Shown: positions 3,406 to 34,149 of the stretch, piece after piece
Position numbering within the stretch: the stretch's first letter is position 1
How the letters are laid out: each line of letters starts with the position of its first letter
NCBI GenBank assembly: GCA_019239875.1
Contig: JAFAZI010000109.1
Location: 2,372-66,371 of the forward strand
Direction: 5' to 3'
DNA length: 64,000 bases
DNA from: Frankiaceae bacterium
GTDB lineage: Bacteria; Actinomycetota; Actinomycetes; JAFAQI01
Position numbers and translations under genes: made by a program
The notes under the pieces: generated by a model
Told to the model about the DNA's origin: nothing
The model's input: only the letters and a program-made list of their open reading frames with translations
Database searches by the model: none

Positions 3406-3851
3406 CAGTTCACGGAGTTGGCGTCGCCGCTTTGGGTGGTGACGATGAGGTGCTTGAGCGGCCCGATCCGTTGGAAGACGACCGTCTTCGCGGTGTGACG
3501 CAGCTGCAGATGAATCGTGCCGTCCGGCTCGACGGTGAACCCTTCACGAAGCACGATCTCGCCCTTGTCGGCGACCGAGTTGACGGCGGCCTGGTAGGCG
3601 AGGGTGATGCTCCGGTTGTTGTCGTGCCAGGCCTGGCTGGCCGCGTAGGCCGCGTCTTGCGCGTCGCTCTCGGTCGAGACGTTGTTCGACATGACCGCGA
3701 AGCCGTCGTACCCGAACACGCCGATGATTCCGAACAGGACGCCGAGCTTGCCCAACGTGACAAGGCTCATCATGCCGGCGTCGTCGCGCACGGGAAGGGG
3801 CTGTCGGGTCACCCAATGGATGTCGGCGCGTTTCGTTTCACCCTTGAGCAC
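3405..3851 (-). CDS. small membrane protein of unknown function
   Basis: ORF with one TM helix (LGKLGVLFGIIGVFGYDGFAV). Its stop shares one nucleotide with the ATG of the NlpC/P60 gene (TGATG). The real start may be the MMSLV Met at 3773. Confidence 0.55.
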   Translation of the reverse strand: MLKGETKRADIHWVTRQPLPVRDDAGMMSLVTLGKLGVLFGIIGVFGYDGFAVMSNNVSTESDAQDAAYAASQAWHDNNRSITLAYQAAVNSVADKGEIVLREGFTVEPDGTIHLQLRHTAKTVVFQRIGPLKHLIVTTQSGDANSVN

Positions 3852-3894
3852 GCGATCTTGCGGCTGAATGGCCTAGCCGGGTGATCGTGTGGGC

Positions 3895-5574
3895 TCAGCC
3901 GGCTCTGCCGAGACGGCCAGGGAGCATCCCCCGGAGCTGATCGATCTCCGAGATCCGGATCCGGCGGGCAACCAGGACGAATGCCACAAGTCCGAAGCCG
4001 GAGCCGAGCACGATCGTGACCACGGCGCCCAGCGGCTTGGCTTGGAAGTCGCCGCTGAGCACGTGGGTGACGATCTCGACGGGGATCGCGGCGATCACGG
4101 CGGCCAGCAGCAGCCGGACATGAGTGCGGATGACATAGGTCTTCTCGGGGACCGGAATCCGGCGACGCAGCTTCACCATGAAGATCAGGGCACCGATCAT
4201 GTAGGACACGGCGTAGCCGACCGCAAGGCCGACGCCGATGTGCTTCGTCGACAGCACGATGTACAGGATCCCGTCGACGACGAGGTTGATCGCGGTGACC
4301 CAGAGATTGACCATCATCGGCGTCCGAGAGTCACGGACCGCCAGCCAGGCGCGCAGTTGCATCTGGAACATCGAGAACGGCACGAGGCCGATCCCGAAGG
4401 CGGCGAGGATGTCACCGGTCTGCTGCGCGTTGCCCGGCGACACCTGCCCGTGCTGGAAGACGGCGACCGCGATCTGTGGGCCGAGGACGACCAGGATCAA
4501 GGTGGCCGGCACGAGGACCACGCCCGCGATCGACAACCCCTGCGACAGCGCCCTGGCGACGGCCGGTTCGTCGCCCTCGGTCGCGCTGCGACTCATCTGA
4601 GGGAACAGCGCAGTGATCACCGTGACCGCAACGATCGCGTACGGCAACGAGAACAGGATGTAGGCATAGGAGTAGAGCGCGTACACGCCCTTGCCGTTGC
4701 CGACCGCCTCCGCGAACTGCACGATCACGAGATAGCCGAGCTGGTTCGTCACGACGTACCCGAGCACCCAGCCCGCGAATGGCCCGGCTCGGCGCAGGCC
4801 GGCACCGCGCCAGTCCCACCGCGCCTTCAGGCGGAAGCCCACCGCGCGCAGCGAGGGCAGCAGCGCGATGGTCTGGAGCACTACGCCAGCCGTCGTGCCG
4901 ACCGCGAGGATCAGGGTCTGCTGATGGGTCAGGTGGCCGGGGCGAGGAGCCGTATGCGTCACGACGTCGAAGGCGATGCCGGATGCGATGACCACGACGT
5001 TGTTGAGAACGGGTGCCCACATCGGCGCGGCGAACCGACCGCGGACGTTCAAGATCGCGCCGATCGTCGCGCCGACGCCGTAGAACAACAGCTGCGGGAG
5101 GAAGTAGCGGGCGAACGTGACCGCGAGGGCGCGCTGCTGCTCCTTCGCGCCGCCGGCGTAGGCCTTGATGATCAACGGCGCGAGTACGACGGCAAAGATC
5201 GCGATCACCGTCAAGGCGACGGTCACCATCGTCAGCAGCCGCTGGGCGTAGACCTCGCCGTCGTCATCATCGTCGTGCGCCGCCTGGACCAGCAGCGGCA
5301 CGATGACGGCCGACAGGATCCCGCCGAGCAGCAGGTCGTAGAGCGCGTTCGGAACCGTGTTGGCGACGGCGTACGCGTTCGCGACGCCTCCACCGCCGAT
5401 CGCGGAGGCGATCACCACGGTCCGGATGAACCCGGTGCCGCGCGAGGCGACCGTGCCGGCCGCCATCATCACTCCGCTTCGCGCGAGCGCCGACCCGGCG
5501 GACTCGGGCTCCTCGTCGGTGGGCTGCGGGATGAAGGCGGGGATCGCGTCCGGCCGGATGGTGATCGGTTTCAT
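3895..5574 (-). CDS. murJ: lipid II flippase MurJ/MviN
   Basis: Polytopic membrane protein with the typical MurJ N-terminus (SALARSGVMMAAGTVASRGTGFIRTVVIASAIG...YAVANTVPNALYDLLLGGILSAVIVPLL). The track ORF 3895..6321 is over-extended. I chose the ATG at 5574, which forms an ATGA overlap with the stop of the upstream gene at 5571. Confidence 0.9.
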   Translation of the reverse strand: MKPITIRPDAIPAFIPQPTDEEPESAGSALARSGVMMAAGTVASRGTGFIRTVVIASAIGGGGVANAYAVANTVPNALYDLLLGGILSAVIVPLLVQAAHDDDDDGEVYAQRLLTMVTVALTVIAIFAVVLAPLIIKAYAGGAKEQQRALAVTFARYFLPQLLFYGVGATIGAILNVRGRFAAPMWAPVLNNVVVIASGIAFDVVTHTAPRPGHLTHQQTLILAVGTTAGVVLQTIALLPSLRAVGFRLKARWDWRGAGLRRAGPFAGWVLGYVVTNQLGYLVIVQFAEAVGNGKGVYALYSYAYILFSLPYAIVAVTVITALFPQMSRSATEGDEPAVARALSQGLSIAGVVLVPATLILVVLGPQIAVAVFQHGQVSPGNAQQTGDILAAFGIGLVPFSMFQMQLRAWLAVRDSRTPMMVNLWVTAINLVVDGILYIVLSTKHIGVGLAVGYAVSYMIGALIFMVKLRRRIPVPEKTYVIRTHVRLLLAAVIAAIPVEIVTHVLSGDFQAKPLGAVVTIVLGSGFGLVAFVLVARRIRISEIDQLRGMLPGRLGRAG

Positions 5575-7751
5575 GCCGCAGGCGCGGTCGTGCGGCGGGA
5601 CGTGAGGGCTCGGCGAGCCAGCCGAATGGCGACGGCGAGCATCAGTGCACCTGTCGCGGCCCCCGTGATCACGAGAGTGATGGTGCCGTACACGGTCGAC
5701 CGCACGTAGAGCTCGGTGCCACGCCGCGTTGAGGTCGTCGAGCCGTAGGGCTGACCGCGGGGGGTCAGCAGGCGGACGGTCACCTTGAACACACCGGAGG
5801 TCTTGGCGTCCGCGTGCAGGTCGACGCGGGTCTGCTGGTGGGCGGGCAGTGAGACCGTCTGCTGGCCGCCGTGCGCGAGGGTCAGGCGCTGGCTCTTGAT
5901 CTTGACGATGACGGTGACGGCTTGGTCGAGGCTGTTCTCGACGGTGATCGGGACTTTGCCGCCGTGGCTGGTCAGCGTGATGTAGCTGCCGGGACGAGAG
6001 GTGATCCGCACTTGATTCATCTGGTGGGAGACCAGCGACCTGAGCTTGTCCAGAGCAATCAGTGAGCCAGCGTGGTCGATTCGCCAACCTGAGGAGATCG
6101 TGACCTGTTCGGCGTTGCTCAACGGCTGGGTGGAGGTGTCGGTGCTCGGCAGGATGGCCGAGAAGGCACTGATCTGCCGCCGAACGTCCCCGACCTGCTT
6201 GAGGTAGCCCGGCGGCAGCTCGTTGTGGCGGGCGAACCCTGGATAGGTGAGCGGCCGGCGCACGATGTTGGCGTCGACGGGTGCGTCGTCGGCGGCGGGC
6301 AGGGTGATCGGCGAGATCCACGGCACCTTGCCGGTGTCGGCGAGCAGCGCGGCAGCGTACGTCGGGTCGGGCGCCCAGCGCCGGTTGGGCATCACGACGA
6401 GATCGCGAACGGTGCTGGGCTGCTCCCGCTGGATCATGAGGGTCTCCGCGAGGAAGCGCTGGAGCGAGACCCGCCAGCCGTCGGGATTGTCCAGCCCGTC
6501 GTTGATGACGTTGTCGAGCGTCGCGTCGGTGAGCAGCGCGTCGACCGGAACGCCGTTCGCGGACACCTGGGCATGTGCGGTCGGGGTGTAGGTCGGGTCA
6601 CCGGCGGAGGGCACGGCGTCGGAGGAGAGCAGCACCGTGTTGTCTCCGCTCGCGCGCAGTGCGCCGAGGCTGCGAGGGTCGGCGAAGCCACCGGGCGGCC
6701 AGCCGTAGTCGAGCGTCGTGGCGCTGGGCAGCAGTGACGAGAGGCGTTCGCGGCCGGTGACGGCGGCCGCCGCGACGGTGGCACCGAAGCCCGCGCGGAT
6801 CGCGGCGACGACGTCGGGATCGGCGTACGGCAACGCCAGGACCGACGCCTCGGATCGGGTGACCGCGCTGTGTACCAGCGGCAGCCACTGCTTGGCCGAC
6901 TCCGAGCCGGAGCCGGTGACGGCTCCGTCCGAGCCGGGGACCTTGTAGGGCGTCGTCATCGCCTTGACCTCGTCGAGCAGCATCGGGTCGATCGCCCAGG
7001 TGATCGGAACGCTCGTCGTGGTCGAGTGCTTGCCGGCCCCTTGCTGCTGCTCGGCCGCCAGCCCGGCGTTCACGAGCGTGGTCAGCCGGCCGGTGGCGTT
7101 GATCTGTGGGGCGAGGTCGTCGTCCACCCAGTTGCCTGGCATCGCTCGGTGGGGGCGGTCGATGAGCGGCCACACCCACGCCACCCCCGTCCGCGCGCCC
7201 ATCGTCCCTGTCGCCGCTCGCGGCGCCCACGGCAACAGGGTCCGCAGGTGCCCGACCGAGGATCCGTAGCTGCTCACGGAGATGCCCATGGCCCTGACCT
7301 GCCAGGAGGTGCCCAGCGCCAGCGAGTCGACCGGCACCTCGAGCCGGAAGGGCTCGCTCGCACCGGCGGCGAGGTACGACGGGTCTGCCTGCTTGGCGCC
7401 GAAGGTCAGGAAGCTCGGATCGAACACCCCGTCCTGGTCCGCGGCGTAGGCGTCCAGCGAGCTCCGCGCCGAGTAGAACGTCGGCGCGAGCTTCAGTGCG
7501 TAGTACAGGTCGCTGATCGTGTCGGCGCTCGTGTTGGTCAGGGTGCCGGCAAGGACGAGCGTGTCGCCGGGTTGCGGAGCGATCGGTGTCAGCCGGGTCA
7601 GCGTGATCTGGATCGGATTGGTGGTCGTCGTGGTCGTCTCCGACGCGGCAGCCCGGGACGGGAGCGCGACGATCAGCGGCGCTACCGCGAGCAGCGCGAC
7701 GAGGAGCGGCCTGACCAGCGCCGCCGGTGAGCGGCGTCGTACCCGGCTCAC
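5571..7751 (-). CDS. large secreted/anchored conserved actinobacterial protein (Rv3909/DUF6049-like)
   Basis: 726-aa ORF with an N-terminal signal peptide (LLVALLAVAPLIVALPSRAAA) and a C-terminal TM anchor (ITLVITGAATGALMLAVAI). It sits immediately upstream of murJ and is coupled to it, as in mycobacteria. The family name is from memory of synteny, not from a search. Confidence 0.75.
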   Translation of the reverse strand: MSRVRRRSPAALVRPLLVALLAVAPLIVALPSRAAASETTTTTTNPIQITLTRLTPIAPQPGDTLVLAGTLTNTSADTISDLYYALKLAPTFYSARSSLDAYAADQDGVFDPSFLTFGAKQADPSYLAAGASEPFRLEVPVDSLALGTSWQVRAMGISVSSYGSSVGHLRTLLPWAPRAATGTMGARTGVAWVWPLIDRPHRAMPGNWVDDDLAPQINATGRLTTLVNAGLAAEQQQGAGKHSTTTSVPITWAIDPMLLDEVKAMTTPYKVPGSDGAVTGSGSESAKQWLPLVHSAVTRSEASVLALPYADPDVVAAIRAGFGATVAAAAVTGRERLSSLLPSATTLDYGWPPGGFADPRSLGALRASGDNTVLLSSDAVPSAGDPTYTPTAHAQVSANGVPVDALLTDATLDNVINDGLDNPDGWRVSLQRFLAETLMIQREQPSTVRDLVVMPNRRWAPDPTYAAALLADTGKVPWISPITLPAADDAPVDANIVRRPLTYPGFARHNELPPGYLKQVGDVRRQISAFSAILPSTDTSTQPLSNAEQVTISSGWRIDHAGSLIALDKLRSLVSHQMNQVRITSRPGSYITLTSHGGKVPITVENSLDQAVTVIVKIKSQRLTLAHGGQQTVSLPAHQQTRVDLHADAKTSGVFKVTVRLLTPRGQPYGSTTSTRRGTELYVRSTVYGTITLVITGAATGALMLAVAIRLARRALTSRRTTAPAA

Positions 7752-24869: not shown

Positions 24870-25106
24870 ATGGCCAAGCCTGTCGTCAGAAAGCTGAAGA
24901 AGAAGGTCTGTCAGTTCTGCAAGGACAAGACCGCCTACATCGACTACAAAGACACGAACCTGCTGCGCAAGTTCATCTCCGACCGCGGCAAGATTCGTGC
25001 CCGCCGAGTGACCGGCAACTGCTCGCAGCATCAGCGCGACATCGCGACCGCGGTGAAGAACAGCCGCGAGATGGCGCTGCTGCCGTACACGAGCACGGCG
25101 CGCTGA
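24870..25106 (+). CDS. rpsR: 30S ribosomal protein S18
   Basis: Sequence [60 protein letters not shown]. Confidence 0.97.
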
Positions 25107-25117
25107 GGAGGCTCGAG

Positions 25118-25567
25118 ATGAAACTCATCCTGACTCAGCAGGTGACCGGGCTCGGCGAGCCTGGCGACATCGTCGAGGTCAAGGACGGCTACGGCCGCAA
25201 CTTCCTCGTGCCCCGGGGCCTCGCGATCCGGTGGACTCGCGGAGGCGAGACGCAGGTCACGGCGCTGCGCCGCGGCCGCGCGACGCGCGAGATCGCCGAC
25301 GTCAGCGAGGCGAAGCAGATCGCCGGCCAGCTGGCGACGCTCCAGGTGACGTTGACCTCGCGCGCCGGCGACGGCGGCCGGCTGTTCGGTTCGGTCACGA
25401 CAGCCGACGTGGTCGAGGCGGTGGCAGCGGCCGGCGGGCCGAAGCTGGACCGCCGGCGCCTCGAGCTGCCGAGCGCGCACATCAAGACGGTTGGCACCCA
25501 TGCGGTGTCGGTACGGCTGCACCCCGAGGTCACCGCGTCGATGAACATCGAGGTCGTCCCGGCCTGA
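25118..25567 (+). CDS. rplI: 50S ribosomal protein L9
   Basis: Sequence MKLILTQQVTGLGEPGDIVEVKDGYGRNFLVPRGLA. Confidence 0.97.
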   Translation: MKLILTQQVTGLGEPGDIVEVKDGYGRNFLVPRGLAIRWTRGGETQVTALRRGRATREIADVSEAKQIAGQLATLQVTLTSRAGDGGRLFGSVTTADVVEAVAAAGGPKLDRRRLELPSAHIKTVGTHAVSVRLHPEVTASMNIEVVPA

Positions 25568-25693
25568 GGCTCGGTCGGGGTTCTGACACACAGACCGGTG
25601 GCTCGCGGTCCACGTCGAGCATCGGTCCGCGCCACGACACTGCGTTTGTGTGTTGCGTCCCCGGCCATCGACACGACCGCTACGGTGCGCCTC

Positions 25694-26821
25694 ATGCGCT
25701 CACATCTCCTATGGGTCGTCGCGGTACTTGCCTTGGTGACCGTGACCGTGGCCGCGCCAGCGACCGCGTCCGCACGCACCGGGCACCGGACGAGCACTCG
25801 ATCAGTTCCGCATCACGTCGTTCGGGTCGGCCGCCATGCCGTCGAGCGATTCGCTCCGCGAGGTGGTGGTAAGCACGAGTTCGACACCAACGTCCTCGAC
25901 GCTGGTGACGTGAAGCTGACGTCGTCGACCGGTCTGCCGTTGCACGTGAACGTGTTCGTCGACCAGTTCAGCGACGGGACAGCGGGGAACACCGGCACGA
26001 TTCTCGAGGTCGGCGTTTACGACCGTCACGGCGAGGATCACCTGTGGTCGGTCGACGTCGGGCGGCGGGCTTTCCTGTGGGATTCGCTTAGCCAGGCTGG
26101 CACCGTGCACTCGGGCGAACAGCTCGGACCGCTTGGCAAAGTCCGCCTCAGCGTCACCGCCGACGGGAAACCGCGGACGACGACCTGCCCGTCGGGCAGG
26201 CATTTCGTTCAGACGCCCGTCAAGGTGTGGGGGGAGGTGCAGGTCGACAGTCAGTCCGCGGCCTGGGGAGTCTTGGGAAACGGGATCGATCGGCTGTATT
26301 TCAAGGGTCATCCATCCCTCGAGCAGGATTACGGCCAGATTGGCGACGCGTGCCAGGGTTTCGCGTCGCGGCGCTGCGACGGGTCGGCGGAGGCCGTTAC
26401 GGGTGGCGCGGCCGGTTTCCTCGATGCTGAGGGCTTCGCTGCTGGCAACGGGACGCCAGTGGGTACTGGCGTCTTCTTCGACCACCCCGCACAGATGCCG
26501 GACGGGGTCGAAGGGTTCGCGGATGATTTCGCGACCCCGTTCCTCGACCCCCTCACCGTCAAGCGTCATGGCGCGACGAAGCGGGTGACCTTGACCGGCG
26601 ATGACACCGGGTTGATCACCGGATCCGCGACTTGGGCGAGCAAAGGGAAGCCCCACAAGGAGCCGGGGGTCTGTCGTGGCGGCGTCGCCAAACGGTGGAG
26701 TGCGGCGTACACCAACGGTGATGTGCCGCTGACGGTGACCTTCGGAGCAGGCGGGACCTATTCGTTCCCTGACTCCGGGCACGACGCTCAACTGATGCTT
26801 CGGCCTCTGGTCCATCGGTAG
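25694..26821 (+). CDS. hypothetical secreted protein
   Basis: Signal peptide (MRSHLLWVVAVLALVTVTVAAPATASA) at an internal ATG of track ORF 25598..26821. I recognised no domain. Confidence 0.6.
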   Translation: MRSHLLWVVAVLALVTVTVAAPATASARTGHRTSTRSVPHHVVRVGRHAVERFAPRGGGKHEFDTNVLDAGDVKLTSSTGLPLHVNVFVDQFSDGTAGNTGTILEVGVYDRHGEDHLWSVDVGRRAFLWDSLSQAGTVHSGEQLGPLGKVRLSVTADGKPRTTTCPSGRHFVQTPVKVWGEVQVDSQSAAWGVLGNGIDRLYFKGHPSLEQDYGQIGDACQGFASRRCDGSAEAVTGGAAGFLDAEGFAAGNGTPVGTGVFFDHPAQMPDGVEGFADDFATPFLDPLTVKRHGATKRVTLTGDDTGLITGSATWASKGKPHKEPGVCRGGVAKRWSAAYTNGDVPLTVTFGAGGTYSFPDSGHDAQLMLRPLVHR

Positions 26822-27221
26822 CTCATCCGACCAAAATTCGGGCAATCCGGGTCGAAATCCCCAGCCTGTGGGAGACCCTGTGGGCGACGGCTGGGGGGTC
26901 GGGCGTCGTTCTCCAGCCGTTCGCCTCCTCGTCGTCCGCCAGACTCCTCGACTTCTTCGCTCCGCACAGATGTGAAAATCCAACGTTGCAGGTCAGACTG
27001 CGTGTCGCCAACTGATCTAGAACTAGTTCCACAGCGCTTTCAACAGGTGTGCACAGCGACGCATCGAGTCATCCACCCCGTATCCACAGATGGGTGCACA
27101 GCCTGCGAATTCGATTGCCGGATAGTGGTTCCGCCCGTCCGCCAATCGCCATAGCGTCACGCGCGATGTTGTCATACCCGGCTGCTGGACTCGGTCCCAT
27201 GCGTCCCATCTGTCACACGCC

Positions 27222-28616
27222 GTGCGCGACGGTGGCCCGGTGAGCGCCGAGCTCGTCTCGGTGCCGGGCGGCGCCGACCGGATCGACATCGACCGGACCC
27301 CGCCGCAGGACATCCTTGCCGAGCAGTGCGTGCTCGGCGGGATGCTGCTGTCCAAGGACGCGATCGCCGATGTCGTCGAGGTGCTGCGGCCGACCGACTT
27401 CTACCGGCCGGTGCACCAGACGATCTACGACGCGGTCATCGACCTCTACGGCAAGGGCGAGCCGGCTGACCCGGTCACGATCGCCGCGGAGCTCACTCGC
27501 ACCGGCCACCTCGAGCGGGTCGGCGGCGGGCCATACCTCCACACTTTGGTCGCCTCGGTGCCGACGGCGGCGAACGCGGGCTACTACGCCGAGATCGTGC
27601 GGGAGCGCGCGATCCTGCGCCGACTGGTGGAAGCCGGGACGAGGGTCGTGCAGCTCGGGTACGGCGCGGCCGCCGGCATGGGCGGCGATGTCGACGATGT
27701 GGTCGATCGCGCGCAGGCCGCCGTGTACGAGGTCGTCGAGCGGCGCACCAGCGAGGACTACATCGGTCTCGAAGCCGCGATGTGGCAGACCTACAACGAG
27801 ATTGAGGCGATCGGAAACCGAGACGGCGAGCTGTATGGCGTGCCCACCGGATTCCGAGACCTTGATGAGCTGACCAACGGTCTTCACGCCGGCCAACTCA
27901 TCATCGTCGGGGGCAGGCCAGGTCTCGGGAAGTCGACAGTGGGGATGGACTTCCTGCGTTCGGCAAGCATTTCCCACAACCTTGCGTCGGTCCTTTTCTC
28001 GCTTGAAATGGGCAAGAGCGAGATCACCATGCGGTTGTTGTCAGCTGAGGCGCGAATCCCACTGACCCGCATTCGCACCGGCACCCTGACCGATGACGAC
28101 TGGAACAAGCTCGCGCGGCGGATGGGTGAGGTGGCGTCTGCGCCGATGTTCATCGACGACTCACCGAACATGACGATGATGGAGATCCGAGCCAAGGCGC
28201 GACGCCTGAAGCAGCGACACGACCTGCGGCTGATCGTCGTCGACTACCTCCAGCTGATGACCAGCCCGAAGCGGGTTGAGAACCGGCAGCAAGAAGTCGC
28301 GGAGATGAGTCGATCCCTCAAGCTGCTCGCGAAGGAGCTCGGCGTGCCGGTCGTCGCATTGAGCCAGTTGAACCGCGCGTCCGAACAGCGCTCGGACAAG
28401 CGTCCACAGCTTTCTGACTTGAGAGAAAGTGGATCTGTGGAGCAAGATGCAGACATGGTGATCTTGCTGCATCGTGAAGATGCCTACGAGCGAGAGTCAC
28501 CAAGAGCGGGCGAGGCGGACCTGATCGTCGCCAAACATCGAAACGGTCCGACGAAGGATGTCGTCGTTTCGAGCCAACTCCATTACTCGCGCTTCGTGGA
28601 CATGCCTCACAGCTAG
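27222..28616 (+). CDS. dnaB: replicative DNA helicase DnaB, complete and intein-free
   Basis: N-terminal domain (PPQDILAEQCVLGGMLLSKDAIADVVE), Walker A (GGRPGLGKST), Walker B (LIVVDYLQLM) and an uninterrupted DLRESGSVEQDADMVILL. The C-terminus is HYSRFVDMPHS. The exact start is uncertain (GTG 27222 or 27240). Confidence 0.95.
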   Translation: MRDGGPVSAELVSVPGGADRIDIDRTPPQDILAEQCVLGGMLLSKDAIADVVEVLRPTDFYRPVHQTIYDAVIDLYGKGEPADPVTIAAELTRTGHLERVGGGPYLHTLVASVPTAANAGYYAEIVRERAILRRLVEAGTRVVQLGYGAAAGMGGDVDDVVDRAQAAVYEVVERRTSEDYIGLEAAMWQTYNEIEAIGNRDGELYGVPTGFRDLDELTNGLHAGQLIIVGGRPGLGKSTVGMDFLRSASISHNLASVLFSLEMGKSEITMRLLSAEARIPLTRIRTGTLTDDDWNKLARRMGEVASAPMFIDDSPNMTMMEIRAKARRLKQRHDLRLIVVDYLQLMTSPKRVENRQQEVAEMSRSLKLLAKELGVPVVALSQLNRASEQRSDKRPQLSDLRESGSVEQDADMVILLHREDAYERESPRAGEADLIVAKHRNGPTKDVVVSSQLHYSRFVDMPHS

Positions 28617-28631
28617 CGAATCGAGGGTCTG

Positions 28632-29945
28632 GTGTCCGATCGGCCAGCCCTGTCCGGCGAGGCCCGCATTTCGCGGGTCGACACCGGGAACCAGGTTGCG
28701 ATTCGCGATCTGGTCGGTCGAGCGGACGTACCCGTGTGGGCACTCGATGAACGGCTCCGGCTGGTGGGGGCGGTAGCCAGGGTGGTATCGAGTTGCGGAC
28801 CGGCGCGGGCGTCGAGAATTCGCCTCGCGTCGGGCCACGTCGTCACTGCAGCCGCGGGCCAGCCGCTGCTCACCATTGTCGGCTGGCGTCGCGTCGCGGA
28901 GCTTCCCATGGGAGCGACGGTGGCGACCTCACGGTCGCTGCCCGAGCCGCGTGGACCCGCGTCATGGCCGGAGCACGAAGTCGTCATGCTGGCTCACCTG
29001 CTCGGTGACGGGTGTGTCACTCGCGATCCGATCTACTACTGCTCGCGTGACGAGGCCAATCTCGAGGTGGTCGAAAAGGCCGCTCGAGGCTTCGGCGTCG
29101 GCACTCGACGCACCCCCGGTCGGGGCGTTACTTATGTGCACTTCCCGATGCTCGATCGACAGGCGCGGGGCCATACGAATCCGCTCTATGACTGGCTACG
29201 TCGGCTCGGCGTCATGGGGCACCGGGCGTGGGAAAAGCAGCTGCCAGCAGAGGTTCATCAGCTGTCGGGTGAGCAGTGCAAAATGTTCTTGCGCCACCTG
29301 TGGGCGACCGACGGATCGGTCACGACCAGCTCCAGCGGTAGAACGCGGATCTACTACGCGACGACCAGTCGACGACTCGCGGAGGACATCCAGGTGCTGC
29401 TAGCACGTTCTGGAATCGGGGCGCGGATCCGAGCGACGACCGCCTCGAAACTCGGCAAGCATCAGGGATGGACCGTCGACGTCAGCGGACGCGACAACAT
29501 GATGATCTTCCTGCTTTCCATCGGAGTCCATGGAGGGCGTGGCCTTCGCTGTGAGCAGGCAATCGCGAACCTCGCCCATCGGGTGGGTAACCCGAACGTC
29601 GATGTGATTCCCGCCGGCATCTGGGAGTACATCCAGCAGCGGATGTCGCAAACGGGGGTGTCCGTCGCCGACCTCGCCAAGCGCTTGAATCGTGTGCAGT
29701 TGACGAGCACCTACTTCAAAACTGGCGTGTCTCGTCCGCGGATGACGATTGTCGCTGCGGCGCTCGGCGAGCGCCGGCTTGCGGATCTCGCAACGTCAGA
29801 CGTGCGGTGGGAACGCATCGTGGCGATCGATCCTGTCGACGATGGCGAACTATTCAAGGTTGTCGTCGCCGGCGCAGATTCCGTCCTCGCAAATTTGGTG
29901 ATTGCTGGTGCGCCCGGCCCGCTCAGCTCAGCGGGGTGGAGCTAG
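28632..29945 (+). mobile_element. free-standing degenerate DnaB-type intein ORF (Hint domain plus LAGLIDADG homing endonuclease)
   Basis: 437-aa ORF in the same frame as dnaB, 15 nt after its TAG. Block A-like ALSGEARISRVDTGNQVAIRDLV has Ala where Cys1 should be. Block B reads TAAAGQP, so the His is lost. The LAGLIDADG motifs MLAHLLGDGCV and FLRHLWATDGSV are intact. The C-terminal block reads VLANLVIAG instead of ..VHN. Confidence 0.8.
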
Positions 29946-30031
29946 TGAGGCCGAGCATCTCCTCGCTGACTTACCCAGCTTCGCTCACTGCTCGTCCCTT
30001 TCCGCAAGGGTGACCCTTTCGGAAAGGAGCG

Positions 30032-31513
30032 TCAGGAAGAGCCGTGCTTTGGCTGGTGGAGCTTCTGGTGCTTCGGCTTCTTGTAGTGCTGCTTCGGTGA
30101 TGTCGGGATGTGGAACGCCGGCTTGCCGTTCACGCACCATGGGTTAGCAGGGATGCCCTTGCACGGGTTCTTCATCGTCCGCTGCGCCCGGGGTGCCTTT
30201 CCGGCGCCTTTGAAGTCCTTGGGTTCCGTGATCCCCGCTGCGTTGAGCGCGACCTGGATCGACGCGACCGGGTCGCCCGGCCCGAAGACGCCCTTGCCCT
30301 GGCCGCGACCCGGGTTCGAGTCGTCGCAGCTGTACAGGTGCATCAGGTTGCTCGGGTCCGTGGTCGCGCCGTGCTTGTGGCCGCCGGTCCGGTCGATGTT
30401 GTGGTCCGCGCAGTTCTGTACGCCGCTGCCGTCGAACACGACGTCCGCGTCGCCCGGCTGGTTGCCCCAGCCGACGTGACGGAACGTGTTGTGGAGGACC
30501 TGGTTGTCCATCGGCGGGAAGAACAGCCAGTGCAGCACGACGCCAGTGTGCTTCTCGTTCACGATCAGGTTGTCCCGGACGATGTCGTCTGAGCCGCCGG
30601 CGATCTCGATCCCGTTGCCCACCGGTGCGATCGCGGTGATGCCGGAGCCGGGCGTGTTGTGCGCGTTGTTGTCGTGCACGTAGTTCTTCGCGATGTAGAC
30701 GCCGTCCTGCGGCGGGTCCGGCTCGCTGGTCAGGGTGTTGGGCACGATGCCGCTGGCGTTGTGGTCCCACTCGCTGTTGAGGATGAACAGTTCGCCACCG
30801 GCGTTGGTCCCGGAGTAGCCGATCGGGTTGTGCTGCGCCCGCGAGTTCGTGATGACCGCGTTGCAGTCGCGGCAGCCGCCGATGTAGATGCCGGAGTCGG
30901 CATTCCACGATCCGTAGTCGAAGGCGAACGTCGACGGCACCTTCCCGCGGGTCTCCGAGTCGTAGGCGTAGATGCCGTAGTCCCCGTTGTCGTACGCGGT
31001 CAGGTAGTTGCCCCAGTAGCCGTGAACGCCGGTCCAGTAGAAGGCGTTCGCCGCACCGGTGAAGTACCGCTGCGCGCTCATGTTCTCGACCCAGGTCCGG
31101 TTGACGCCGAGCACGTGCACGGCGGAGCCGCCCGTCTTCTTGCCGTCGAACAGGACACCGTTGCGGTTCATCCCCCGGATGTGGAGGCCACCAGTCAGAC
31201 CGTGCCCGCGCTGCACCGTCGTCTGCTGCTTGTACAGGCCCGGCCACACCAGGATGTAGTCGCCGTTGCGCGCATGGTCCACCGCGAGCTGCAGCTTCGT
31301 GAAGTAGTGGTGCTTGGTGTGCGGGCACTTGCGCGTCCCGTTGCACACGAGCAGGACGCGGTGACGGTGATGCGCCTTGTGATGATGCGTCACCGGCCGG
31401 TGGCGAACCGGCGACGCCGACGTCGCCGAGGCTGCGAGCAGCGTCGTACCGATCGCCAGTACGCCGGCCAGGCTGATCGCCCGGTGCTTGTTGATCAGGC
31501 GGGTCACGGTCAC
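30032..31513 (-). CDS. secreted right-handed parallel beta-helix repeat protein with His-rich termini
   Basis: Trimmed to the GTG at 31513, which overlaps the multicopper oxidase stop (GTGA). It has a signal peptide (ISLAGVLAIGTTLLAASATSA) and His-rich stretches (HRPVTHHHKAHHRHR and HYKKPKHQKLHQPKH). Repetitive G-x-x-I/V-x-N beta-helix rungs are present (NRTWVENM, NAVITNS, GNGIEIAGGSDDIVRDN). Confidence 0.7.
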   Translation of the reverse strand: MTVTRLINKHRAISLAGVLAIGTTLLAASATSASPVRHRPVTHHHKAHHRHRVLLVCNGTRKCPHTKHHYFTKLQLAVDHARNGDYILVWPGLYKQQTTVQRGHGLTGGLHIRGMNRNGVLFDGKKTGGSAVHVLGVNRTWVENMSAQRYFTGAANAFYWTGVHGYWGNYLTAYDNGDYGIYAYDSETRGKVPSTFAFDYGSWNADSGIYIGGCRDCNAVITNSRAQHNPIGYSGTNAGGELFILNSEWDHNASGIVPNTLTSEPDPPQDGVYIAKNYVHDNNAHNTPGSGITAIAPVGNGIEIAGGSDDIVRDNLIVNEKHTGVVLHWLFFPPMDNQVLHNTFRHVGWGNQPGDADVVFDGSGVQNCADHNIDRTGGHKHGATTDPSNLMHLYSCDDSNPGRGQGKGVFGPGDPVASIQVALNAAGITEPKDFKGAGKAPRAQRTMKNPCKGIPANPWCVNGKPAFHIPTSPKQHYKKPKHQKLHQPKHGSS

Positions 31514-34149
31514 GAGATCCCCTTCGACTCGATCGCGGGTAGGGCAGACGGAATGGCGCGGCGGACCGCCGCGAGATACGGGTCGAACGGCCGCCAGGCA
31601 CGGACCCGGTCGGGCAGGAAGCCACGGATCGCCACCAGGACGAGCGGCACCTCGACCGCCAGCGACGCGATCCCCCACGGGTCCAACCACTCACCGACGT
31701 GGTCCGGGATCTGTGGCAAACCGATCGCGCGACTCCACAGATACCCCGCGATGGTGAGCCCGGCCGCCCAGCCACCGACGCCGTCGAGCAGACGGGTACG
31801 ACGCCAGCTCGCCATCGCGAGTGAGGCAGCCGCCGCCCCGAAGATCAACAGGCCGAAGCCCACCGCCAGGTAGGGCGCCTCCCGCAGCTTGTCCAGCCAA
31901 TCCGAGGCATGCGTTACGGCGACCCCGGCCAGCAGCAGGATCGCGAAAGCTCGCAGCACCGGACCGGACAGCTCGCGGCGGCGGCGCCACAGCAGGACCA
32001 GCGCGAGGAAGGGCGCCTCGACTGACACCACCCACCCGAGGCGGACCAGCTTGCTCATCCAGACCGGCGGCGGACCGGCCATCTCGCTCATGTCCATCGA
32101 CGTCGAGGTCTCCGGCTTGCCGGTGCCCATCGCCCCCATGCCCATCGCGGCCATCCGCGGCGTCACGGTGACGTGATTGGTGGCCGCCACTGCGGTCTCC
32201 ATCGCCTGACCGAGCGACAGCTTCGCGAGCTTCGCAGGCATCGCCGGCCCGTGACCGAAGACGTAGCCCTTCGGGGCGTGAGCCGGCTGCGCGCCCGATT
32301 TCGTCACGAGGAACTGCGCCATCATCCCGTGGTCCTCGTGGTCGAGCATGTGGCAATGGATCATGAAGACACCGGTGTAGTCGCTCAGCGTCGACGCCAC
32401 CTCGACGCTGTCACCCGGGTCGAGCCGCCACGTGTCCATGAGCCCGCGTTCATACGGCGGGGGCGGCTGGCCGTTGACGAGGACGGTGTGCCACTGCTCC
32501 TCGTGGAGGTGGATGAAGTGCGTTGTGGTGCCGACGTTGGTCAGCAGCCACGTCTGTGTCGAGCCGCGCGGCGCCGAGAAGTCGATCCGGTTCGGGCTGT
32601 AAGGCTTGCCGTTGACTGCCCAGAACGTGCCGCGGTTGGCGTTGCCGCCCAACCCGAACACCCACGTCGCGGTGGGCACCGACGCCGCGTCGATGTCGGG
32701 TGCTGATGGCATCGACTTCGGCACCCGGGTGTGATCCGGCGCCTTGCGCCCCACCCGGAACTCCATCAGTGCCTCGGCCGGTGTGCCGATCCCGCCCGGT
32801 GCGTTGTCGCTGCGCAGGATGGACTTGAGCAACACCCGCTTGTGTTGCTCGCCATGGAAGTTGACGATCACGTCGGCGCGCTGCGCGGGGCCGAGCATGA
32901 TGTCCGGCCGCTTCACCGGCTTCGGCAGCAGGCCCGAGCCGTTGCCGATCTGGACCAGCGGCTGATGGTCGGACATGGCGAAGTCGTAGGACTGGAAATC
33001 CGACGAGTTGAGGATCCGCAGCCGGTAGCGGTGCGCCTTCACCTTCAGGTGCGGCCGGTAGACCCCGTTCACGAGGATGTCATTGCCGACCGTAGCGTCG
33101 CCCGGCGGTGCGTACACACCGTTGTACTTGGCCGTGACCGGTTGGACGCCGGTAGGGAACGGCTCCTCCAACTGGTTCAGGTTGTCGAACGCGCGATCCG
33201 CGACGGCGAGTGGTACGTCGTACCGGCCGCCTGGCAGGTGCAGTTTGCTCTCACCCTTGTGGGTGATCTCGAACATTCCCTGCAGGCCGTTCCAGTTGTT
33301 GCGGCCGGTCAGCCCCATGCGGTGGTCGTGGTAGAACTCGAACGCCGACGGCTCCGGCTTGCCGCCGTCGGTCAGCGGATAGGTGTAGGTCCGCTTGTGT
33401 CCCTCCTTCAGGAGCTTCGAGTCCGGCTGGCCGTCGAACTTCGACTCGTGGTGATCACCGTGCAGATGCACCGTGATGGGCCCCACGCCGCGCGAGAGCT
33501 TGTTGACGAAGGTGACCTTCGTCTTGTGGCCCGCCGGCCGTCGGATCGTGGGACCTGGGTAGGAGCCGCCGAAGGTCCACATCTGGGTCTTCGGGCCGTG
33601 CGGCAGGACCCGGACTCCCTTGTTGACCACCGGTATCGGGATGTGCGAGCCGGTCAGCACTCGCGGGATCCGCAGTCTCGACGGGAACTTCTGCTTCGGC
33701 GCGGACGGCGGCTTTCCGCCGCTGCCCTCGACGATCAGGGTCCCGGTCATGTTGGGGTGGAACTGGCAGTAGAACGCGTACGAACCCGGCGCGAGCTTCT
33801 TCACCCCGGCGACGTTGACCGTCTCGCCGGGCAGCGCGTTGCCGCTGAACAACGGCTTGCCGCTCGGCTTGCGGGCGACCGAGGTCACCGTGTGTGCGAG
33901 CTGGTCCAGGTTGATGAAGGACAGCGGGCTGCCCTTCGTGACCACGGTGAGCTTTGTGTAGAAGCCGGTCGAGGCGCCGCCCGGCCCGACGAGGACGGCG
34001 CCTTTGAGTGTGGTCTGCGAGGTCGGTACGCCGCCGAGCGTGAACCCTCGCGACGCCGCCGACGCCTGCGAGCTGCCGACGTACGTCCCGCCACCGATGA
34101 CCAGGGCGAGGACGAGCAGGATCAGCCGGGGAAGGGGGGCGCGGCGCAC
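31510..34149 (-). CDS. multicopper oxidase fused to an N-terminal cupredoxin and a C-terminal polytopic membrane domain
   Basis: 879-aa ORF with a signal peptide. It has a plastocyanin-like T1 site (YAFYCQFHPNMTGTLIV) and the four MCO motifs HLHGDHH, FYHDHRMG, HFIHLHEEQWH and HCHMLDHEDHGMM. A Met-rich segment (MAAMGMGAMGTGKPETSTSMDMSEM) is followed by about 5-6 TM helices. Confidence 0.88.
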   Translation of the reverse strand: MRRAPLPRLILLVLALVIGGGTYVGSSQASAASRGFTLGGVPTSQTTLKGAVLVGPGGASTGFYTKLTVVTKGSPLSFINLDQLAHTVTSVARKPSGKPLFSGNALPGETVNVAGVKKLAPGSYAFYCQFHPNMTGTLIVEGSGGKPPSAPKQKFPSRLRIPRVLTGSHIPIPVVNKGVRVLPHGPKTQMWTFGGSYPGPTIRRPAGHKTKVTFVNKLSRGVGPITVHLHGDHHESKFDGQPDSKLLKEGHKRTYTYPLTDGGKPEPSAFEFYHDHRMGLTGRNNWNGLQGMFEITHKGESKLHLPGGRYDVPLAVADRAFDNLNQLEEPFPTGVQPVTAKYNGVYAPPGDATVGNDILVNGVYRPHLKVKAHRYRLRILNSSDFQSYDFAMSDHQPLVQIGNGSGLLPKPVKRPDIMLGPAQRADVIVNFHGEQHKRVLLKSILRSDNAPGGIGTPAEALMEFRVGRKAPDHTRVPKSMPSAPDIDAASVPTATWVFGLGGNANRGTFWAVNGKPYSPNRIDFSAPRGSTQTWLLTNVGTTTHFIHLHEEQWHTVLVNGQPPPPYERGLMDTWRLDPGDSVEVASTLSDYTGVFMIHCHMLDHEDHGMMAQFLVTKSGAQPAHAPKGYVFGHGPAMPAKLAKLSLGQAMETAVAATNHVTVTPRMAAMGMGAMGTGKPETSTSMDMSEMAGPPPVWMSKLVRLGWVVSVEAPFLALVLLWRRRRELSGPVLRAFAILLLAGVAVTHASDWLDKLREAPYLAVGFGLLIFGAAAASLAMASWRRTRLLDGVGGWAAGLTIAGYLWSRAIGLPQIPDHVGEWLDPWGIASLAVEVPLVLVAIRGFLPDRVRAWRPFDPYLAAVRRAIPSALPAIESKGIS

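Follow-up and report, generated by a model that had tools for sequence, protein, structure and literature searches.

Directly downstream of dnaB in a 64,000-nucleotide (nt) stretch of DNA from a Frankiaceae bacterium (the window; assembly GCA_019239875.1, contig JAFAZI010000109.1, positions 2,372 to 66,371 of the forward strand) lies an open reading frame (ORF) of 437 amino acids (aa) that, judged by its sequence, is a separate gene descended from a homing-endonuclease-bearing intein once inserted in dnaB at DLRE|SG. The ORF has lost both exteins and all splicing residues, and its LAGLIDADG endonuclease domain is as conserved as that of inteins still embedded in dnaB. Similar free-standing forms recur beside dnaB in Nocardia, Rhodococcus and soil metagenomes, and in carriers with an empty insertion site the dnaB sequence around that site has an anomalous codon composition. 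We read the ORF as a free-standing, intein-derived, homing-type endonuclease with a recoded and self-immune target, which would operate by a mechanism like that of the yeast WHO elements and HO; we give this interpretation about an even chance of being right.

An extein-less intein homolog next to dnaB

As the initial annotation had stated, dnaB in the window is complete and its b-region intein site is uninterrupted. The 464-aa product matches Pfam DnaB and DnaB_C (E 5e-102) and TIGR00665 (521 bits, with a cut-off of 385); it is intein-less at the P-loop site GLGK|S (27932/27933) as well as at the b-region site, where the motif DLRESGSVEQDAD is intact. The start of the gene is uncertain: a GTG stands at 27222, homology begins at residue ~20 at the latest, and an alternative ATG at 27342, used in the gene call of a second assembly of the locus, would remove conserved residues. 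The stop codon TAG (28614-28616) is followed by 15 nt and then by the GTG of the ORF in the same frame, which agrees with the earlier description. A promoter scan of 26700-30300 returned no sites, hence none between dnaB and the ORF, so the two are probably co-transcribed.

The collinearity of the ORF with DnaB inteins, also proposed in the initial annotation, is borne out by several comparisons. In the NCBIfam model PRK07773 for intein-containing DnaB, the ORF aligns with positions 398-823 (E 3.6e-102), and since the window DnaB matches positions 18-398 and a second, later stretch of that model, the ORF corresponds to its intein-sized part. It also matches Pfam LAGLIDADG_3 (E 4e-22), Pfam Intein_splicing below threshold, and the solved structures of the Synechocystis DnaB mini-intein (E about 1e-14). 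Given this homology to DnaB inteins, the contrary outcome that had been allowed for, an ORF not derived from an intein, did not occur. The initial annotation had further placed the insertion point at RESG|S (28433/28434); the site is empty as claimed, but the ORF's own lineage uses DLRE|SG (28427/28428), two codons upstream.

Alignment with embedded relatives agrees with the proposal that the splicing residues are gone. Residue 1, a Cys in the embedded relatives, is Ala; block B reads AAGQ in place of TANH, with both the Thr and the His lost; block F reads DSV where the relatives have HSF or HNF; and the C terminus reads AGAP where they have SHN|S, leaving no +1 nucleophile. Nucleotide searches found no significant extein DNA flanking the free ORFs, with local alignment scores at chance level, and no C-extein follows the window ORF, as had been observed. 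Its first five residues, VSDRP (28632-28646), resemble the N-extein sequence SDLRE by visual alignment only, and may be a remnant of it. Having neither exteins nor splicing residues, and lying outside any host protein, the ORF is not an intein by definition; what it shares with inteins in structural terms is a predicted Hint fold.

Both acidic residues of the LAGLIDADG motifs are kept, as had been noticed from the sequence. Among 75 homologues, D227 never varies and the conservation of D126 is 90% or higher; both are present in all free forms. An AlphaFold2 model built with these homologues has a predicted local distance difference test (pLDDT) score of 94 and a predicted template modelling (pTM) score of 0.93, with pLDDT <50 for residues 433-437; such confidence stems largely from the alignment of embedded inteins, and shows collinearity rather than proving that the protein folds. 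The top Foldseek matches of the model are endonuclease-bearing inteins, namely TliVMA (7qss; TM score 0.72), PI-PfuI, PI-TkoII and PI-SceI. The Ssp and Npu DnaB mini-inteins can be superposed on its Hint part with a root-mean-square deviation of ~1-2 A over ~100 residues, and I-DmoI on its nuclease part. With two acidic motifs and a predicted pseudo-dimeric alpha-beta-beta-alpha-beta-beta-alpha fold, the ORF has the sequence and the modelled structure of a two-motif LAGLIDADG endonuclease. At NCBI, the free proteins of Nocardia and Rhodococcus already go by the names "LAGLIDADG family homing endonuclease" or "endonuclease".

Since the ORF stands in the dnaB frame after a single TAG and 15 nt, it could in principle be a read-through appendage, produced by TAG suppression as a DnaB-intein fusion, or the product of a mis-joined assembly of an intein-containing dnaB. 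Both ideas are hardly credible. An independent assembly (GCA_019243655.1, a 10.8-kb contig, L088) is 99.97% identical over 7.4 kb spanning the junction, its two differences (26364 and 27929) fall outside the ORF, and the identical ORF protein is present on JGI, NCBI and ENA contigs; this rules out a mis-join, including one at 28600-28640 that the initial annotation had named as a danger to its claim. Read-through, which the same annotation had thought the less likely of its options, finds no support in the other carriers checked: in three of them (L001, L006 and L055) dnaB and the ORF do not share a frame, and elsewhere the ORF lies ~100-284 nt or 2.3 kb from the dnaB stop, so that the shared frame in the window is a coincidence. 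Moreover, the ORF has its own GTG preceded by a Shine-Dalgarno-like GAGGG, and a fusion lacking Cys1, the terminal His-Asn and a C-extein would be incapable of splicing and a burden on a helicase that is essential.

Conservation of the nuclease domain

The Hint and nuclease parts of the free forms have diverged to very different extents. In the RE|SG clade, to which the window ORF belongs, N-terminal Hint identity is 0.64 among embedded inteins, and falls to 0.46 between the window ORF and embedded inteins and to 0.35 for the free form of the soil contig L001; in the Nocardia clade the corresponding values are 0.80 and 0.53. The C-terminal Hint part shows the same drop (0.49 for window to embedded, 0.76 among embedded). 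Nuclease identity, in contrast, is 0.65 among embedded inteins of the RE|SG clade and 0.58 (window) or 0.60 (L001) from free to embedded, with 0.74 and 0.71 in the Nocardia clade. We also counted the columns with a conservation of 90% or more across 85 embedded inteins (68 nuclease and 43 Hint columns). The window ORF keeps 60/68 of the nuclease columns, within the range of its embedded clade-mates (58-63), and 25/43 of the Hint columns (18 lost), for which the clade-mates keep 35-39. This asymmetry is significant for the window ORF (p = 4e-4) and for the other free forms (p from 5e-3 to 3e-9), and holds in all seven free forms.

Synonymous sites are saturated in comparisons involving the window (proportion of synonymous differences, pS, about 0.65), which makes the ratio of nonsynonymous to synonymous substitution rates (dN/dS) unusable there, and we therefore relied on the proportion of nonsynonymous differences (pN) by domain and on a pair of Rhodococcus ORFs. 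Between the window ORF and its closest embedded relative (P0198), nuclease pN is 0.21, compared with 0.23 for an embedded-embedded pair, and Hint pN is 0.32, compared with 0.18. In the Rhodococcus pair, the free ORF as a whole has a dN/dS of 0.17, its nuclease domain 0.09 and its Hint parts ~0.2, with 0.06 for dnaB and 0.02 for gapdh in the same genomes. Degenerate Hint parts, a conserved nuclease and a dN/dS of 0.17 together argue that the free ORF is a selected gene rather than debris, and that the selection is specific to the nuclease domain. To this extent the suggestion in the initial annotation of a domesticated endonuclease or DNA-binding protein gains support.

The same data bear on the view that the ORF is a slowly decaying remnant, left when an intein was displaced by recombination (for example, by replacement of the dnaB 3' end with an intein-less allele), now non-functional and not yet interrupted by a stop codon in a high-GC genome. 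Several observations would fit: all splicing residues and both exteins are lost, the branch leading to the window ORF has roughly double the length of the branch to its embedded sister, long spurious ORFs are common in high-GC genomes, and the patch of low GC content at third codon positions (GC3) in dnaB, described below, could be a scar of recombination or co-conversion. Yet decay is limited to the Hint parts, every independent free copy examined keeps its full-length frame, and the parallel Rhodococcus lineage is under purifying selection as measured above. In neutral simulations, which leave indels uncounted, the frame stays open with p = 0.05 at 0.1 substitutions/site and 0.003 at 0.22; if the excess Hint divergence (~0.2/site) were taken as the time since escape, a neutral ORF would thus remain open with a chance of ~0.003, or 0.05 at half that time, an estimate that depends on the model. 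We regard a remnant as quite unlikely, and the decay that the initial annotation had listed first is disfavoured as the whole story, with the ORF intact after Hint constraint was lost and intact ORFs in at least three lineages.

Independent origins and other carriers

Neighbor-joining trees with bootstrap, built from full-length sequences and from the nuclease domain alone, place the window ORF as sister to P0198, an embedded intein at RE|SG, with 88% (full length) and 96% (nuclease domain) support. P0198 is also its closest relative by identity (61-62%), and the DnaB C-extein of P0198 is identical to that of the window except for SGAI in place of SGSV. The free form L001 is a separate branch within the RE|SG clade, which itself has 100% support; a grouping of L001 with the window ORF receives 8% and 0%. 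Free forms from Nocardia and Rhodococcus have as their neighbours embedded RESG|S-type inteins of Nocardia and Skermania (80-96% support with full-length sequences, only 1-47% when the tree is restricted to the nuclease domain). The share of replicates that unite all free forms in one clade is 0%. The trees indicate at least three independent escapes from embedded DnaB inteins. A single origin of the window and L001 forms had 63% bootstrap support at first and was rejected when this support was lost on addition of P0198; long-branch attraction, acting through the degenerate Hint regions, probably explains why the two had grouped together.

The carriers differ in how far the ORF lies from dnaB and in the state of the two intein sites. 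In three soil metagenome contigs (P0008, L001-L003), with an intein-less dnaB, the ORF start overlaps the dnaB stop (by 4 nt in L001). The ORF begins 38 nt past the dnaB stop in Nocardia inohanensis (L006; b-site empty, P-loop site occupied), about 100 nt past it in Nocardia sp. NPDC005978 (L055) and about 105 nt in Nocardia sp. NPDC127526 (L090), both with an intein-less dnaB, and 284 nt past it in Rhodococcus aetherivorans (L005), in which both sites are occupied. In the R. pseudokoreensis/opacus group (L007, L089) it lies 2.3 kb downstream with one gene in between, the b-site being empty and the P-loop site occupied. Further extein-less proteins of the same kind come from N. huaxiensis and other sources, represented by the proteins only.

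Two of these carriers stand out. The free copy of Nocardia sp. NPDC005978 (6001-7290 of the locus) keeps Cys1, the block B motif NHPF and the terminal His-Asn, with a Pro at +1 and no exteins; these retained residues make it look like a more recent escape, and one that might still be able to cut at its termini. In R. aetherivorans (CP088969.1), the embedded b-site intein (3535-4535, 335 aa) has intact splicing residues and a dead nuclease, with motif 1 missing and motif 2 reading WEGNG, while the free ORF (5001-6341) has intact nuclease motifs and is dead for splicing. As read from their residues, the two would form a complementary pair.

The arrangement, which had been called unusual, is indeed rare but is not a singular event. 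A free ORF downstream of dnaB was found in 0/47 intein-less metagenome dnaB loci with enough downstream sequence. A scan of species-representative genomes yielded 579 stretches confirmed as relatives, and 79 of the 80 best-scoring loci inspected were ordinary embedded inteins. Among 80 metagenome loci there was no ORF-less close relative of the window or of L001 at 95% identity or more. No carrier was found on a phage or plasmid, the matches being only unrelated Bacillus terminase inteins and one chromosome-sized Nocardia farcinica record with an ordinary embedded intein. A literature search, with most subscription journals outside it, turned up no description of bacterial inteins that lack exteins and lie next to dnaB, and this recurrent arrangement is apparently undescribed.

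Some side observations concern the wider intein family. In the Rhodococcus pair L007 and L089 (4783-6434), the free ORFs are 90% identical, the upstream dnaB-gapdh flank is 96.5% identical, and homology ends within ~60 nt past the ORF; this hints that a boundary of genetic exchange lies at the ORF, and at a link to recombination. A 708-aa JGI protein (P0016) carries an RE|SG-type intein, 42% identical and reading CLAGDT...SHN|SG, in a host protein without DnaB domains, a possible host switch of the lineage. In the close relative L004 (JGI Ga0604945_0020759), an in-frame TAG at dnaB codon 311 splits the gene call of an intein-containing dnaB, as either a sequencing error or a pseudogene.

Codon usage at the empty insertion site

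The dnaB sequence around the empty site is recoded with A/T-ending and rare codons, an anomaly absent from the initial annotation. The site reads CTT TCT GAC TTG AGA GAA AGT GGA TCT GTG GAG CAA GAT GCA in the window, and CTC TCC GAC CTG CGT GAG | TCG GGC GCG ATA GAG CAA GAC GCC in P0198. In 20-codon windows, GC3 drops from about 0.9 to 0.40 over 90 nt centred on RE|SG; in 40-codon windows, none of the 2,873 windows taken from 46 putative genes across the 64 kb falls below the 0.50 at the site (mean 0.888, standard deviation 0.065). The window and P0198 differ at 15/42 nt at the site and at 54/303 in the rest (p = 0.012), and the next 20 codons after the site are near-identical in the two, synonymous positions included. 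A foreign, low-GC replacement of the whole 3' half of dnaB was considered and finds no support, given that the deepest trough is local (~90 nt) and that the downstream codons match P0198.

Across loci, we measured the trough as GC3 at the site minus an upstream reference. Its mean is -0.26 in carriers with an empty site (n = 6, partly non-independent), -0.03 in intein-less, ORF-less controls (n = 80) and -0.11 in intein-occupied alleles (n = 79), and the groups differ by Mann-Whitney tests (carriers vs controls p = 6.6e-5; carriers vs occupied p = 0.0014; occupied vs controls p = 8e-9). In post hoc codon comparisons, the Arg codon AGA occurs at the site in the window and L001 only and in 0/80 controls, and a Ser AGY codon next to the junction in 5/6 carriers and 9/80 controls. 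The weaker trough of occupied alleles rules out that the feature is unique to carriers, and part of it may be an inherited co-conversion scar. If a sequence encoding an invariant helicase motif in a genome of G/C-ending codons had to escape a nuclease, it would be forced towards A/T-ending codons, and such a footprint would therefore appear as a GC3 trough.

Other parts of dnaB show related signals, GC3 and pS being mosaic along its length. A second, shallower dip (27760-28060, dnaB codons ~180-280; 0.70-0.75 vs ~0.93), accompanied by greater synonymous divergence from relatives, is centred on the P-loop site GLGK|S. That site is empty in the window and occupied in P0198/L173 and in the Nocardia and Rhodococcus loci, and the dip may be a scar of past intein traffic there. 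In 79 loci with embedded inteins (L004-L087, L171, L173), extein-flank GC3 is lower than in the rest of dnaB, consistent with co-conversion of donor flanks in cross-species homing.

A proposed mechanism and its alternatives

On the homing interpretation, the intein would have left dnaB at DLRE|SG and ended up 15 nt past the stop codon, without exteins or splicing, after which selection would have kept the two-motif LAGLIDADG domain together with the overall Hint scaffold. The Hint scaffold of other intein endonucleases helps to bind DNA. If, as we infer, the ORF is expressed as an active nuclease with dnaB as its target, it would recognise and cut the sequence around RE|SG in naive alleles, and repair from the carrier chromosome would copy the ORF along with the adjacent 3' part of dnaB, making the free ORF mobile. 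The carrier's own dnaB would be immune through the recoding of ~40-90 nt around the site, by synonymous A/T-ending codons and the change of Ala-Ile to Ser-Val.

A number of points weigh against this interpretation. Translated (tblastn) and short-query nucleotide (blastn-short) searches of eight carrier loci found no relic of the dnaB 3' end downstream of the free ORFs, so that ordinary chromosomal synteny would be needed to supply the second homology arm. The interpretation offers no account of the route by which an intein reaches a spot just past the stop codon of its host gene, and there are no extein remnants at the junctions. Presence/absence polymorphism among close relatives was looked for and none was seen. 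The codon evidence draws on only six carriers and on tests that were post hoc, the trough extends in weaker form to intein-occupied alleles, and the excess of substitutions centred on the site is modest for the window and non-significant for most Nocardia pairs. Saturation of synonymous sites, noted above, removes dN/dS as a measure for the window ORF itself. Lastly, catalytic competence would rest on the two conserved aspartates and on overall conservation, and the helical subdomain after the nuclease core carries an R341A change in the window ORF and a change of CGS to LTS common to the window and P0198.

Alternatively, the ORF may have become a non-selfish protein with a host function exerted through sequence-specific DNA binding, with or without cleavage; it would then resemble WhiA, or HO after its domestication. 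Possible roles would be to regulate dnaB or the replication region, or to guard the dnaB site against incoming inteins. Purifying selection on the protein, the intact frame, probable co-transcription with dnaB and the presence of WhiA among the structural matches to the nuclease domain all accord with such a role, as does the failure to find a mobility signal or polymorphism. Against it stand the two catalytic aspartates, which are unchanged in every free form whereas domestication of the WhiA type lost them, and a sporadic, rare distribution with at least three origins, unlike that of a conserved orthologue. In addition, the Rhodococcus ORFs, diverging more (90%) than their upstream flank (96.5%) with homology ending after the ORF, look mobile or boundary-like. 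We consider domestication unlikely.

Returning to the homing interpretation, its widest form would make the free ORFs a class of ex-inteins that arise repeatedly from resident DnaB inteins and drive themselves, with a resistant dnaB 3' end, through populations, caught up in an arms race whose mark, at the level of codons, would fall on one of the most conserved of helicase motifs, and that may serve nuclease-less embedded inteins in trans, as the R. aetherivorans pair would suggest. This form is tentative, and we lean towards doubting it.

Genomic neighbourhood

The coordinates of the features discussed are collected in Table 1. The 64-kb window holds no other intein-like sequences, and Rfam, tRNA and promoter scans of it returned nothing relevant. 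Upstream, the usual actinobacterial run rpsR-rplI-dnaB is present, with a 407-aa ORF (25598-26821, +; no Pfam match, GC3 0.77) filling a rplI-dnaB gap of 1.65 kb. This gap is only ~300-385 nt in L001 and L004, which suggests that the 407-aa ORF was inserted ahead of dnaB; the independent assembly L088 has it too. Downstream, beta-helix and multicopper oxidase genes (30032-34149, -; ~4.3 kb) separate the free ORF from a glycosyltransferase gene, which directly follows dnaB in the relatives L004 and L092; L001 has a PAC2-family gene at that place, and the segment after dnaB is a variable region in the window's relatives. Between the convergent stops of the free ORF and the beta-helix gene lies a strong stem-loop, possibly a bidirectional terminator (RNA fold of 29940-30045, -42.2 kcal/mol, z = -2.3); a simple terminator scan did not call it, and it lacks a T-run.

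Table 1. Positions in the 64-kb window of dnaB, the free ORF with its parts, and neighbouring features.
Feature	Position	Strand	Remarks
rpsR	24870-25106		run rpsR-rplI-dnaB
rplI	25118-25567		run rpsR-rplI-dnaB
dnaB, replicative DNA helicase	27222..28616	+	464 aa; Pfam DnaB and DnaB_C; TIGR00665
Empty insertion site, presumed endonuclease target in dnaB	28392..28481	+	RE|SG 28427/28428; RESG|S 28433/28434
Spacer from dnaB stop to ORF start	28617..28631	+	15 nt; Shine-Dalgarno-like GAGGG at 28623-28627, 4 nt before GTG
Free-standing intein-derived ORF	28632..29945	+	437 aa; extein-less, splicing-dead, with LAGLIDADG domain
Degenerate N-terminal Hint subdomain	28647..28946	+	ORF residues 6-105; Cys1 to Ala, block B TANH to AAGQ
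LAGLIDADG endonuclease domain and C-terminal helical subdomain	28947..29771	+	ORF residues 106-380
Motif 1, VVMLAHLLGDGCV	28980-29018	+	LLGDGCV; D126 (GDG) at 29007-29009
Motif 2, FLRHLWATDGSV	29286-29321	+	LWATDGSV; D227 (TDG) at 29310-29312
Degenerate C-terminal Hint subdomain	29772..29942	+	ORF residues 381-428, then a novel 9-residue tail of low model confidence
Stem-loop, CCUUUCCG...CGGAAAGG	29997..30027		between the stops of the ORF and the convergent beta-helix gene
Beta-helix protein gene	30032-31690	-	convergent with the free ORF

Implications

The accepted life cycle of inteins runs through invasion, fixation, decay of the nuclease and loss. The locus described here and its parallels suggest another exit, in which an intein would leave its host gene, drop splicing and persist as a free nuclease beside its old target. 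The same step has been proposed for the origin of the yeast WHO elements and HO; here it would have been taken several times, from a known source intein, and with what appear to be intermediates still present, in the form of the NPDC005978 copy with its Cys1 and terminal His-Asn and of the embedded and free pair of R. aetherivorans. As several carriers belong to cultured, genetically tractable genera, the idea is directly testable. If it is true, selfish nucleases would shape synonymous codon usage in an essential replication gene, and the carriers would add long-target LAGLIDADG enzymes that come paired with natural resistant and sensitive sites. For annotation, such genes should not be taken for broken dnaB genes or mis-assemblies.

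Comparison with known systems

The bacterial intein-like (BIL) domains are Hint domains without an endonuclease, found inside variable, non-conserved proteins. The ORF was ruled out as one of these, since it has a full LAGLIDADG domain and nests among true DnaB inteins. WhiA, whose LAGLIDADG fold was exapted in Actinobacteria, is like the ORF in this respect and is one of its structural matches (8dy9_I). WhiA has lost the catalytic acidic residues, has a helix-turn-helix domain, is universally conserved and is not derived from an intein; the ORF, in contrast, keeps both aspartates, is sporadic and does not match any WhiA family model. The canonical LAGLIDADG DnaB inteins of PRK07773 architecture are homologous to the ORF over its full length and share its predicted fold and two nuclease motifs; the Ssp and Npu mini-inteins resemble its Hint part, as described above. 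Unlike them, the ORF is not within a host protein, has lost the splicing residues and the +1 nucleophile, and shows relaxed constraint on its Hint parts.

Free-standing homing endonucleases are also known from phages. The Seg and Mob genes of phage T4 encode such enzymes and use intronless or collaborative homing. The F-CphI gene of a cyanophage stands next to psbA (Zeng, Bonocora and Shub 2009, as cited in PMC3229294). In these systems, as proposed for the window ORF, the nuclease gene lies beside rather than within its target, and immunity comes from polymorphism or occupancy of the target site; the R. aetherivorans pair mirrors the combination of a nuclease-less intron and a free nuclease gene in collaborative homing. 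The differences lie in the kind of enzyme and host: the T4 Seg/Mob and F-CphI-type nucleases are mostly phage GIY-YIG or HNH enzymes and never inteins, whereas the window ORF is a LAGLIDADG protein with an ex-intein Hint scaffold, and such ORFs reside in bacterial chromosomes.

The closest parallel is offered by yeast. There, the WHO elements and their domesticated relative HO are LAGLIDADG genes that resemble inteins and have no exteins. WHO lies directly downstream of its essential target FBA1, and the adjacent 3' part of that gene owes its resistance to allelic differences, a good number of which are synonymous (Coughlan et al. 2020, eLife, PMC7282813; 2026 preprint, 10.64898/2026.08.13.744650). 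Like WHO and HO, the window ORF is intein-derived, combines a Hint scaffold with two LAGLIDADG motifs, and has neither exteins nor splicing. As with WHO, it adjoins a conserved, essential gene on its downstream side instead of lying inside it, and the adjacent target differs from naive alleles, which in yeast is a demonstrated resistance and here a difference in sequence. Unlike WHO and HO, it has a bacterial host and a presumed target in dnaB rather than FBA1 or MAT, and it lacks a zinc-finger domain, Pfam returning only LAGLIDADG_3 and the sub-threshold Intein_splicing. Two traits of WHO have no counterpart here: a duplicated 3' fragment of the target downstream, absent from the eight carrier loci searched, and clusters of elements, of which none were seen. 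Conversely, the ORF is probably co-transcribed with its presumed target, and the bacterial forms appear to derive, on several independent occasions, from an intein residing in that very gene. We thus describe the window ORF as a gene that would work like a WHO element, rather than filing it as a member of that group.

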